Below are positions 100 to 11,202 of a DNA stretch of 12,872 nucleotides, one piece after another. This DNA is from a virus. Lineage: Duplodnaviria; Heunggongvirae; Uroviricota; Caudoviricetes. The notes beneath the pieces are model-generated. The model made no database searches and had not been told where the DNA came from. It was given only the letters and a program-made list of their open reading frames with translations. The stretch lies in the IMG/VR virus record IMGVR_UViG_2737471845_000023. One strand, 5' to 3'. Each line of letters starts with the position of its first letter. The stretch's first letter is position 1. The translations under genes and the position numbers were made by a program.

Positions 100-3780
<3,681 letters not shown>

Positions 3781-3806
<26 letters not shown>

Positions 3807-4326
3807 TCAGCAACCCCGGTATCAGTTCATCCAGCGCGGCTGCTTTGTTCATGGCTTTGATGATATCCCGTTTCAGGAAATCAACATGTCGGTTTTCCAG
3901 TTCCGGAAAACGCCGCTGCACCGACAGGGGGATCCCGTCGAGAATACTGGCAATTTCACCTGCGATCCGCGACAGCACGAAAGTACAGAATGCGGTTTCC
4001 ACCACTTCAGCGGAGTCTCTGGCATTTTTCAGCTCCTGTGCGTCGGCCTGCGCACGCGTAAGTCGATGGCGTTCGTACTCAATAGTCCCTGGCTGGAGAT
4101 CTGTCTCGCTGGCCTGCCGCAGTTCTTCAACTTCCCGGCGCAGCTTTTCGTTCTCAATTTCAGCATCCCTTTCGGCATACCATCTTATAACGGCGGCAGA
4201 GTCATAAAGCACCTCATTACCCTTGCCACCGCCTCGCAGAACGGGCATTCCCTGTTCCTGCCAGTTCTGAATGGTACGGATACTCGCACCGAAAATGTCA
4301 GCCAGCTGCTTTTTGTTGACTTCCAT
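3781..4326 (-). CDS. Nu1: terminase small subunit (lambda gpNu1), 181 aa
   Basis: 181-aa ORF MEVNKKQLADIFGASIRTIQNWQEQGMPVLRGGGKGNEVLYDSAAV... recognised as lambda Nu1 (winged-helix DNA-binding N-terminus); sits directly downstream of cos. Confidence 0.97.
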
Positions 4327-4560
4327 TGTTCATTCCACGGCCAAAAACAGAGAAAGGAAACGACAGAGGCCCAAAAGCTCGTTTTCAGCACCTGTCGTTT
4401 CCTTTCTTTTCAGGGGGTATTTTAAATAAAAACATTAAGTTACGACGAAGAAGAACGGAAATGCCTTAAACCGGAAAATTTTCATAAATAGCGAAAACCC
4501 GCGAGGTCGCCGCCCCGTAACCTGTCGGATCGCCGGAAAGGACCCGCAAAATGATAATAA
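4327..4560 (-). other. cos: lambda-type cos packaging site: cosB (Nu1-binding R1-R3 repeats), cosN (12-nt cohesive-end sequence at 4504-4515), cosQ-side flank
   Basis: Plus strand 4504-4515 reads AGGTCGCCGCCC, the reverse complement of the lambda left cohesive end GGGCGGCGACCT, with flanks cccgcg / cgtaacctgtcgg matching lambda. Three copies of the Nu1-binding motif CGTTTCC(T/G)TTCT lie between cosN and Nu1 (about 4347-4365 rev, 4394-4409 fwd, 4441-4460 rev). Confidence 0.9.
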
Positions 4561-8546: not shown

Positions 8547-8765
8547 ATCCTCACCCCGATGTACACGGATGGTGCAATATGTTTGAAAAGATCGGAGTCT
8601 ACGGGGTAGTTTTGACAGCACACGTTGTTCTCAACGGCGCTAAAAAAACATACACATTAAAAATGTGGGTAATTATTTTGAAAGAAAGTCATATATAAAA
8701 TAATAATACGAGAAATGTTTTCATATTTAGTGTACTGTATACGGCCATTTATACAGGAAAAGCCT

Positions 8766-8936
8766 ATGTCAGAACGTAAAAACTCAAAATCACGCCGTAA
8801 TTATCTCGTTAAATGTTCCTGCCCAAACTGCACCCAAGAGTCAGAACACAGTTTTTCAAGAGTACAAAAAGGTGCCCTTTTGATCTGCCCTCATTGCAAC
8901 AAAGTATTCCAGACAAATCTTAAAGCTGTAGCCTGA
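8766..8936 (+). CDS. small zinc-ribbon protein (CxxC...CxxC), 56 aa; possibly the Qin small protein YnfU
   Basis: MSERKNSKSRRNYLVKCSCPNCTQESEHSFSRVQKGALLICPHCNKVFQTNLKAVA with two CxxC pairs about 20 residues apart. SD AGGAAAA 7 nt before the ATG at 8766. On the strand opposite to the late operon. Confidence 0.55.
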   Translation: MSERKNSKSRRNYLVKCSCPNCTQESEHSFSRVQKGALLICPHCNKVFQTNLKAVA

Positions 8937-9016: not shown

Positions 9017-9299
9017 TTGAGATTGTGGTGCTTTTTGTGGGAGTCATCCACTTACGCACTTTGTTTTGCCATGCCAGCAGTTAGCTTCTGCTGTAAAACT
9101 ATTCATGCAGCAAACCTGCACTTCACCACAATGGTTAGCATACTTTTCCTGATTAAGATTTTGCCAAATATGCTAGCCATTGTTTCATGTATTGGACCTC
9201 CTTACTTTTTATTAAAGAGATCCAATATTCACTACTCTGTCCGTATCTCTACTCAGGCATCAGCCTTCTTCGTTATCGTATACAGACGAGCGATGAATT

Positions 9300-9515
9300 T
9301 TAATCAGTAATGATGACATTTGCTGCTGCAGGACCTTTAGCACCACTCTCTATAGAGAAGGTAACCTTTTGACCTTCAAATAAGGTTCGATAATTATCAT
9401 TCTGAATCGCAGAAAAATGCACAAACACATCTTTACTACCATCAACAGGAGAAATAAAGCCGAAACCTTTATCAGCGTTAAACCATTTTACTAAACCAGT
9501 CATTTTATTTGACAT
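9300..9515 (-). CDS. cspB: cold-shock protein, CspA family (CspB), 71 aa
   Basis: [71 protein letters not shown]; matches K-12 CspB as recalled. SD AAGGAA. Confidence 0.93.
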
Positions 9516-9815
9516 TCTACATTCCTTAACTTGAGCCTTTCGGCATAAATGGTTTGCATAACAGAAACGACTTCGTACTTAATTGGAGAGACTCAAAGAA
9601 GGAATAAGTGAATAACACCTGAAATGAGAACTGCTTTAGTAAACTACTTCGTATATCGTCTGTTCTTCAAACCGACGCAATCATTAACGCATAGTTGAAC
9701 ATATGAAGCAATGTTTATTTTAGACATCCAGCCATCTTCAACCCCATCAAAAAACTATAGCTTTCTTCAGGAACGTGTGTATAGTGCGCCAAGTTATCAG
9801 TATTAAGGAATTTTT

Positions 9816-10028
9816 TTGTCCCGTAAAATGACAGGAATTGTCAAAACCTTTGACGGCAAAAGCGGCAAGGGTCTTATCACCCCATCCGATGGTCGTATCG
9901 ATGTCCAGCTTCATGTCTCAGCGCTCAATCTCCGCGATGCAGAAGAAATTACCACCGGATTACGCGTGGAATTTTGCCGGATAAATGGTCTGCGTGGCCC
10001 TTCAGCTGCCAATGTTTACCTTTCATGA
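9816..10028 (+). CDS. cspF: CspF/CspH-type divergent cold-shock-domain protein, 70 aa, TTG start
   Basis: [70 protein letters not shown]: cold-shock-domain fold with a degenerate RNP1 motif, as in CspF/CspH. TTG at 9816 with AAGGAA 7 nt upstream. Divergent from cspB as in Qin. I cannot separate CspF from CspH by memory. Confidence 0.85.
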
Positions 10029-10082
10029 GCTATATTAAAGCTTTAATTTCAGGCCCCATCGGATCACACATGGAGAGTTTTT

Positions 10083-10172
10083 ATGAATAACCCCGTCTGT
10101 CTTGATGACTGGTTGATTGGCTTTAAAAGCTTATGCTGTACTTTGGCCGTAATAGCTCTGCTAATAATATAA
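10083..10172 (+). CDS. candidate 29-aa hydrophobic small protein (unannotated)
   Basis: ATG at 10083 preceded by GGAGAG at 5-nt spacing; [29 protein letters not shown] with one predicted TM segment; followed by the bidirectional terminator at 10321-10354. Below the ORF-track cutoff. Prediction only. Confidence 0.3.
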
Positions 10173-10317
10173 TAAGCAGACTCATTGTGTTTAGGGACAT
10201 TGTACTGGAAGAAAACATTTTAAACATCAGGCAAATAACCAAGTCACCAGCTAAATAATAAGTTAACAGACATGAGTCCCGGGATGAGATTCAACATTAC
10301 CATTGCCCCATTTAAAG

Positions 10318-10354
10318 CACAAAACCCGCTCATCAGCGGGTTTTCTACTTTTTC
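10318..10354. terminator. bidirectional intrinsic terminator: tR' for the short pR' leader on the minus strand and the terminator for cspF-side transcripts on the plus strand
   Basis: Stem CCCGCT-CATC-AGCGGG at 10325-10340, flanked by TTTTCTACTTTTTC on the plus strand and by UUUUGUGCUUU on the minus strand. Confidence 0.7.
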
Positions 10355-10376
10355 TTAACGTCGGGTATACAAAGCC

Positions 10377-10418
10377 CATCGTTGAAAAAATTTTATCCAT
10401 ATTTTTTGAAAAATGCAA
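10377..10418 (-). promoter_or_regulatory. late promoter pR' with a sigma70-dependent promoter-proximal pause element (Q engagement region)
   Basis: On the minus strand, 32 nt after the Q stop: TTGCAT (-35), 17-nt spacer, TAAAAT (-10), then ttttttC-AACGAT-GGG. The -10-like AACGAT just after the predicted start and the CAACGATGGG string match the lambda pR' initial transcribed region as I recall it. tR' follows about 60 nt downstream. Confidence 0.7.
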
Positions 10419-10449
10419 ACATCATGTCGCCATCTTCAGCAAAAATCAT

Positions 10450-11202
10450 TTATCTCGTCACCTTCCTCAATTGCGCTTCCGCGTATGCTTCTTCCTGCCA
10501 GCACTTTGTTACCAGTTTACCAATGACGTCCGCATACCCCTTATACCACTGATAATCGGTCAGGTCTGGTACCAGCTTCTGGACATGACGTCGTGCCAGC
10601 GTGGTCGGTAAACGACTAAACCGGTTTCCATTACAACGCCCACAAATCTTATATACCGGTACGCCATGAAACCGGGTTCTTTTTTCATCCAGAACAATCC
10701 CTTTACCCTTACACCCTCTGCACGCTGTGCTGGCTTCGCCCTTACCATGGCAATGCTGACATAGTTCCTTCACCCATTCTTCCTTGATTACAGATTCCCC
10801 GCGTCTGTAGTGTTTCACCACTTCGCGCAATACATTATAAAATCCCGTACCTGAACAATGCTCACAGCGAGCCTTACTTGCCGCAGACCTGGAGTAATCA
10901 GCAAAGGCAAAACTCACGAGGTAAGGAATAATCTGTAACCGGATTTCTTCACTCAATTTGTTCAATGTCGGGTTATCCAGTGCCATCGCGTAATTTAGCA
11001 GGCCTTCAATCGCAAACTGAGGGTCCTGAACACCAACTTTTGCCAGAAATAAGGCCAACCCAAGTGGTGCTTTCGACTGCACCATCCCCTGCGCTGCCAT
11101 TACATCCGTAATTGTTAAACAACCGGTGCCTGTCGCTGGAGCGTCATCGCTCAATTTTGGAGATTTTGGGGAGTAATATTTTGGTAAGGCTTCAAGGTTC
11201 AT
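10450..11202 (-). CDS. quuQ: late-gene antiterminator Q (phage 82/21 QuuQ type, multiple CxxC zinc motifs), 250 aa
   Basis: MNLEALPKYYSPKSPKLSDD...CEHCSGTGF...CQHCHGKGEASTACRGCKGKG...CGRCNGNRF. SD GGAGAA before the ATG at 11202; the ORF-track start at 11232 adds 10 residues. Sits immediately upstream of pR' and downstream of ydfU, as in Qin. Confidence 0.88.
   Translation of the reverse strand: MNLEALPKYYSPKSPKLSDDAPATGTGCLTITDVMAAQGMVQSKAPLGLALFLAKVGVQDPQFAIEGLLNYAMALDNPTLNKLSEEIRLQIIPYLVSFAFADYSRSAASKARCEHCSGTGFYNVLREVVKHYRRGESVIKEEWVKELCQHCHGKGEASTACRGCKGKGIVLDEKRTRFHGVPVYKICGRCNGNRFSRLPTTLARRHVQKLVPDLTDYQWYKGYADVIGKLVTKCWQEEAYAEAQLRKVTR

Follow-up and report, generated by a model that had tools for sequence, protein, structure and literature searches.

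A hydrophobic reading frame of 29 codons, lying between a cold-shock gene and the antitermination gene of a lambdoid prophage, raises the question of whether it encodes a real protein and, if so, what kind of protein this would be. The frame occupies positions 10083-10172 on the plus strand of the window, by which we mean the whole 12,872-nucleotide stretch of Caudoviricetes DNA analysed here (IMG/VR record IMGVR_UViG_2737471845_000023). A preliminary description had presented it as an unannotated membrane peptide with a strong ribosome-binding site, similar in size and composition to small membrane proteins and type I toxins.

Identity of the reading frame and its product

Reading the sequence together with the list of open reading frames places the ATG at 10083-10085 and the TAA stop codon at 10170-10172, with a second TAA directly behind it (10173-10175), and the list contains no earlier in-frame start. 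Direct reading also confirmed the Shine-Dalgarno sequence GGAGAG (10072-10077) that had been described 5 nucleotides ahead of the start, the two being separated by a TTTTT spacer (10078-10082). As a chance check, all 82 ATG-initiated reading frames of 20-50 codons in the six frames of the window were compared. A Shine-Dalgarno core lies 4-10 nucleotides ahead of 6 of these and a 19-residue window with KD >= 2.0 occurs in 4, while both features are combined in the frame at 10083-10172 only, with about 0.3 such frames expected. This suggests that the combination is mildly unusual; taken alone it is no proof of a gene.

Judged by its sequence, 10083-10172 is the known small-protein gene ynfS of Qin-type lambdoid prophages, and its recovery here is a rediscovery. 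The translation is identical to that of ynfS (b4750) at 1642122-1642211 of E. coli K-12 MG1655, within the cryptic prophage Qin, and the gene order, with cspF followed by ynfS and then by the convergent ydfT/Q, is common to the window and K-12. The Pfam family PF23697 ('YnfS') matches residues 1-29 of the 29-residue product at E=4.7e-23, its score of 80.9 bits lying above the curated cut-off of 27, the protein cluster holding the exact sequence carries the source name 'Protein YnfS', and the UniProt entry name is YNFS_ECOLI. In strain IAI1 the matching position is annotated by PGAP as a 90-nucleotide CDS for a hypothetical protein (WP_120795389.1), and a megablast search against complete E. 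coli genomes likewise returned annotations in which a 'hypothetical protein' separates cspF from ydfT. The description of the frame as unannotated was therefore wrong: ynfS has been a named gene with a b-number and a Pfam family since 2018-2019, and four independent methods have demonstrated its translation.

The prophage in the window is a fuller Qin-like element carrying terminase and portal genes, 99.7-99.9% identical to sequences from NCTC9112, IAI1 and others, and is closer to E. coli IAI1 and NCTC9112 than to K-12. Given that the interval from the start of cspB to the stop codon of Q (9516-10449) differs from MG1655 at only one base (position 9917), experiments performed in K-12 apply directly to the window. 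Start-site ribosome profiling and tagging had been proposed as ways of checking the frame, and both have given positive results in K-12. The gene was a previously unidentified positive in a tetracycline-arrested ribosome-profiling screen, and an SPA tag on chromosomal ynfS, listed with the same coordinates and sequence, produced a specific band (VanOrsdel et al. 2018; PMC6001520). The tagged protein accumulated from the native K-12 locus in both exponential and stationary phase (PMC6001520). Weaver et al. observed 'strong start peaks' with retapamulin and with Onc112, together with a modest protein level (bioRxiv 10.1101/511675). A transcriptome study includes ynfS in a gene table alongside ldrB and ldrC (PMC10100675), and in 2024 a survey of the E. 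coli y-ome continued to class it as uncharacterized (PMC11551758). Our literature search turned up no paper that localises YnfS, names a binding partner or describes toxicity or a mutant phenotype, and no over-expression screen naming its sibling small proteins.

The peptide consists of a short acidic N-terminus followed by a hydrophobic C-terminal stretch of 19 residues. Over residues 11-29 the Kyte-Doolittle hydropathy averages 2.46, and the insertion energies on a Hessa-type scale sum to about -1.0 kcal/mol. This segment is hydrophobic enough for a single span, which bears out the one membrane segment predicted earlier, and YnfS is most probably a tail-anchored, single-span inner-membrane peptide. 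In Pfam the YnfS family was the sole match for the peptide, NCBIfam and PADLOC gave zero matches, and the best PHROGs match (13.8 bits, E=0.12), a family of unknown function, is meaningless. A paralogue was sought elsewhere in the window and none was found, leaving ynfS as a single-copy gene.

Surroundings and a model for expression

Upstream on the same strand lies cspF (9816-10028), which was taken from the list of reading frames, matches the Pfam cold-shock domain (CSD) with E=5.6e-22, and is annotated as cspF in K-12 and IAI1. It directly precedes ynfS at 128 of 128 loci. The 54-nucleotide spacer between the two genes (10029-10082) holds the ribosome-binding site and no terminator-like hairpin, and the mRNA around this site folds no more stably than shuffled sequence (z=-0.84). 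On the basis of this leader fold, the idea of a toxin mRNA whose structure blocks its own translation was set aside. Behind ynfS, an untranslated stretch of 148 nucleotides (10173-10320, +) reaches to the terminator; apart from the terminator itself this stretch is also no more stable than shuffles (z=-0.74), and a structured 3'-derived small RNA was set aside on that account. About 290 nucleotides separate the cspF stop codon from the terminator.

The terminator is an intrinsic hairpin at 10321-10344 (AAAACCCGCT-CATC-AGCGGGTTTT), recovered by a terminator scan as well as in the MFE and centroid folds and kept in all four aligned alleles. With an A-run flanking one side and a T-run the other, it is able to stop transcription coming from either direction. 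On the plus strand it probably ends the cspF-ynfS transcript. Further on, and just downstream of Q on the minus strand, a consensus scan returned the promoter-like sequence TTTGCA-18-TAAAAT (10390-10419), a candidate pR'. The gene for the antitermination protein Q itself (ydfT/quuQ, 10450-11202, minus strand; Pfam PF03589, E=3.6e-54, and annotation) is convergent with ynfS and lies downstream of it at 117 of the 118 loci that extend far enough. The late genes on the minus strand comprise ydfU, Q, cspB, essQ, ydfR, rrrQ, rzpQ and the packaging genes. The position given in the preliminary description, downstream of cspF, ahead of a bidirectional terminator and opposite the late operon, is accordingly correct.

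From this arrangement we infer that ynfS would be the promoter-distal cistron of a bicistronic plus-strand cspF-ynfS RNA ending at the hairpin, since the spacer holds no hairpin and cspF lies directly upstream at every locus. A plus-strand promoter scan found none, even for cspF, and such a scan cannot decide whether ynfS has a promoter of its own. By analogy with lambdoid phages, the minus-strand site at 10390-10419 would be pR' and the hairpin probably the tR' of a short pR' transcript. The cspF-ynfS unit would be a 'moron' that the lysogen expresses and that sits between Q/pR'/tR' and the lysis genes, pointing the other way. Once the prophage is induced, RNA polymerase modified by Q would pass tR' and transcribe across ynfS in antisense. 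Because the terminator stands between pR' and ynfS, the gene would be antisense to Q-dependent read-through only. The earlier claim that the frame is antisense both to the pR' leader and to late read-through thus holds for the read-through and fails for the short leader.

Two further roles were weighed against the arrangement of the genes. A leader peptide or upstream regulatory reading frame is excluded, the next plus-strand feature being the terminator and the next gene, Q, being convergent. A lysis-cassette protein (holin, antiholin or spanin) finds no support: ynfS is on the strand opposite essQ-ydfR-rrrQ-rzpQ and outside that cassette, and it has no significant PHROG or Pfam lysis match.

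Several other features of the neighbourhood were recorded in passing. The cspB 5' UTR and coding start (9284-9676, minus strand) match the Rfam cspA thermoregulator RF01766 with 158.8 bits, well above the gathering score, while the cspF leader (9747-9846, plus strand) gives only a partial match of 14 bits to the same family. Another known small-protein gene, ynfU (8715-8936, plus strand; Pfam PF23499, E=6e-31, zinc-ribbon-like), has the holin gene on one side and cspB on the other and is oriented against the late operon. Within Q, beside PF03589, is a stretch matching the central CXXCXGXG zinc-finger domain of DnaJ with 35.4 bits, above the cut-off. A second hydrophobic reading frame of 29 codons, MSGFCALNGAMVMLNLIPGLMSVNLLFSW, is found on the late strand (10244-10333, minus), with its ATG in the loop of the tR' hairpin; it has no obvious Shine-Dalgarno sequence and is probably fortuitous.

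Distribution and sequence variation

The full stretch from cspF to the terminator was found in 1406 of 5426 complete E. coli genomes, nearly always at an identity of at least 99%, with a minority allele of the region that is about 90% identical. About 216 further E. coli records match the distal 44 nucleotides only (216 of 1623, or roughly 13% of carriers). In the example examined (locus L005, 1299-1544), this short match reflects a 258-bp deletion, corresponding to about 10021-10278 of the window, that joins the last codons of cspF to about 10279 and removes ynfS. Phage Tritos shows the same short match, and neither an intact cspF nor ynfS is annotated in it. By contrast, ynfS is carried by the phage genomes HannyBb, PhiR42_1, PhiR63_1 and 2H10.

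Homologues were sought with a back-translated degenerate DNA pattern for 10 residues, with tblastn and with an exact cluster look-up. Among GTDB representatives of 185,579 species the pattern hit three contigs only, all of them from E. coli or Shigella, and in IMG/VR it was found on at least 120 contigs; ynfS was present only in Qin-type prophages of Escherichia and Shigella. Together with the control region that they share, the divergent genes cspB and cspF (9401-10024) are 76% identical to chromosomal cspG-cspH of K-12 (locus L129, 2468-3076), and this homology stops no more than four bases from the cspF stop codon. No ynfS-like reading frame follows cspH, a 76%-identical cspF-like gene on a Salmonella fragment, or a 64%-identical cspF-like gene of phage PHB10. 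Since nothing similar stands behind any of these three genes, ynfS is embedded in sequence that one prophage lineage alone possesses.

Two observations concern the region next to ynfS in individual carriers. At nine loci, HannyBb (2980-4533) among them, about 1.55 kb is inserted between ynfS and Q, flanked by a duplicate of the 3' end of Q and the pR' region, so that 10367-10507 of the window occurs twice, and holding a reading frame of 94 amino acids that ends in a hydrophobic C-terminal tail and matches nothing in Pfam. The deposited HannyBb annotation (PP925841.1) shows a string of 'hypothetical proteins' of about 30 codons on one strand and leaves cspB, cspF and ynfS uncalled, which looks artefactual.

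Nine haplotypes of the reading frame were found among 127 ynfS loci, without a frameshift or nonsense change and with a single ATG-to-ATA replacement. The frame is thus kept in related prophages, being intact at 126 of 127 loci, although the divergence is too shallow to prove selection. Across 39 haplotypes, variable sites made up 15.5% of cspF, 16.7% of the spacer and 10% of ynfS, as against 51% of the columns in the 3' stretch, where there are also indels (25 gap columns). The much lower variability of ynfS than of the 3' stretch, together with the intact frame, leaves room for some constraint on the reading frame.

At codon level, ynfS showed 1 synonymous and 8 non-synonymous variants, no different from the neutral site ratio (p=0.39), in a shallow within-species sample of nine haplotypes in which such sampling inflates non-synonymous counts and the search pattern, by fixing codons 6-15 at the protein level, biases against them. 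The corresponding variants in cspF were 19 synonymous and 12 non-synonymous, biased to synonymous (binomial p=3e-5), and the two genes differ from each other (Fisher p=0.02). Thus, cspF is under purifying selection, whereas the ynfS sequence shows little sign of selection. The replacements seen in YnfS (A22T/G/V/S, V23L, I29M and L11M/V) are conservative for a membrane helix, and the protein cluster adds V5F, C6Y, D9N, L11M/V and I12T, some of them on hundreds of contigs. One cspF haplotype carries a nonsense codon (Q31*); given this haplotype and the ynfS locus with ATA in place of ATG, neither gene is strictly maintained.

Competing explanations and known systems

These results are best explained if YnfS is, most likely, a young, dispensable, efficiently translated accessory peptide whose function is weak, conditional or absent. 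We favour this reading because the gene is confined to Escherichia and Shigella, lies in lineage-specific sequence, is often deleted, and varies mostly by amino-acid changes while its neighbour cspF is under purifying selection. Taken as a whole, with the identity of ynfS, the model for its expression and the young, dispensable peptide together, we consider this explanation probable. YnfS is probably neither a toxin nor an essential part of the phage.

Many characterised E. coli proteins of this size act on larger membrane proteins, with AcrZ, MgtS, MgrB and the superinfection-exclusion peptides of phages as models, and YnfS might similarly be a functional inner-membrane regulator that binds a larger host or phage membrane protein and brings the lysogen a conditional benefit. 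Such a role would suit its predicted single span and its production in growing cells, as well as its frame being intact in nearly all loci, with replacements that preserve hydrophobic character. It would also suit a reading frame that varies less than the stretch downstream of it and that phages such as HannyBb, PhiR42_1, PhiR63_1 and 2H10 have retained. Against it stand the lack of detectable purifying selection next to a cspF that shows it, the deletion of the gene from about 13% of cassettes as well as from phage Tritos, and the absence of homologues outside one prophage lineage; the literature found supplies no partner, phenotype or localisation. A regulatory role is the main rival explanation, and we regard it as rather unlikely. 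A more specific proposal, that YnfS is a lysogen-expressed membrane effector (for superinfection exclusion, abortive infection or as a mild toxin) that convergent, Q-dependent late transcription shuts off on induction, appears improbable to us, as does its softer version, in which ynfS would be a de novo gene caught at its birth in the untranslated tail of cspF.

The likeness to type I toxins drawn in the preliminary description found no positive support. A membrane-damaging toxin restrained by antisense RNA made on the other strand would agree with the size and hydrophobic composition of YnfS, which resemble those of TisB, ZorO, ShoB and Ibs, and with the presence of hokD and relBE in the same prophage according to the K-12 annotation. 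The published table that groups ynfS with ldrB and ldrC (PMC10100675) and a sigma-70-like match on the minus strand (10193-10164), overlapping the ynfS stop codon, could be read in the same direction. Yet this promoter-like site matches at only 9 of 12 positions, and three bases of its hexamers (10169, 10189 and 10191) are not the same in the two main alleles. Moreover, 10029-10253 contains no Rfam family at E<=1 under permissive thresholds, K-12 carries no annotated RNA gene in this stretch, and the ribosome-binding region is no more structured than shuffles. Pfam and PADLOC return no toxin-family match and there is no paralogue. In addition, strong initiation and a tagged protein made constitutively from the native locus in healthy LB cultures of K-12 are a misfit for a repressed toxin, and we judge the toxin explanation very improbable. 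Equally hard to credit is the idea that translation of ynfS matters and its peptide does not, with ribosomes shielding the cspF 3' region from Rho, RNase or antisense late RNA. A strong ribosome-binding site and strong initiation set against a comparatively low YnfS level would be accounted for in this way, as would an apparently unconstrained peptide whose start, frame and stop are kept, and the roughly 290 nucleotides between cspF and the terminator also count in its favour. However, cspF is already complete upstream, so that later premature termination would have no effect on CspF synthesis; the 148 nucleotides after ynfS stay untranslated in any case, and the deletion allele removes the whole region. 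The young, dispensable accessory peptide remains the reading that we prefer.

What the present analysis adds is the confinement of ynfS to Qin-type prophages, its linkage to cspF, the lack of a counterpart behind cspH and the more distant cspF homologues, the deletion allele, and the pattern of 1:8 synonymous to non-synonymous variation against 19:12 in cspF. The comparative results argue against spending effort on the toxin hypothesis. The natural alleles, namely the 258-bp deletion (as in Tritos) and the ATG-to-ATA change, together with the carriers 2H10, PhiR42_1 and HannyBb, provide ready-made controls for functional tests. As a tidy case of a strongly translated, apparently unconstrained and lineage-restricted small reading frame, ynfS bears on the debate over how many of the 'small proteins' detected by ribosome profiling are functional.

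Among known systems, the type I toxins TisB, ZorO, ShoB, IbsC, Ldr and Hok share with YnfS a short, hydrophobic, single-helix product, and YnfS likewise resides on a mobile element that carries hokD. Unlike them, YnfS is constitutively translated from an unstructured leader, with no conserved antisense RNA gene or promoter and no family match. AcrZ, MgtS, MgrB, YnaM and other products of the Hemm and Storz screens are of similar size with a predicted single segment, and YnfS came from the same screens; small membrane proteins with known roles, however, show conservation beyond a single genus, and their partners have been identified, whereas YnfS belongs to one prophage lineage and shows no detectable purifying selection. 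A third set is formed by YnfQ and YnfR (by cspI), YmcF (by cspG) and YnfU (between essQ and cspB), which like YnfS are encoded by short reading frames flanking genes of the cold-shock family and were described in the same studies. YnfS is without sequence similarity to any of these four. YnfR rises strongly on cold shock (PMC6001520) and ynfQ is described as cold-shock induced (PMC11228462), while no such response has been reported for YnfS; for YmcF a counterpart exists on the chromosome, but cspH is followed by nothing like ynfS. The closest comparison of all is with YnfS of the K-12 Qin prophage, which has 100% amino-acid identity, the same neighbours and nothing different at gene level, the difference being that the prophage in the window is the fuller of the two, with its terminase and portal genes still present.
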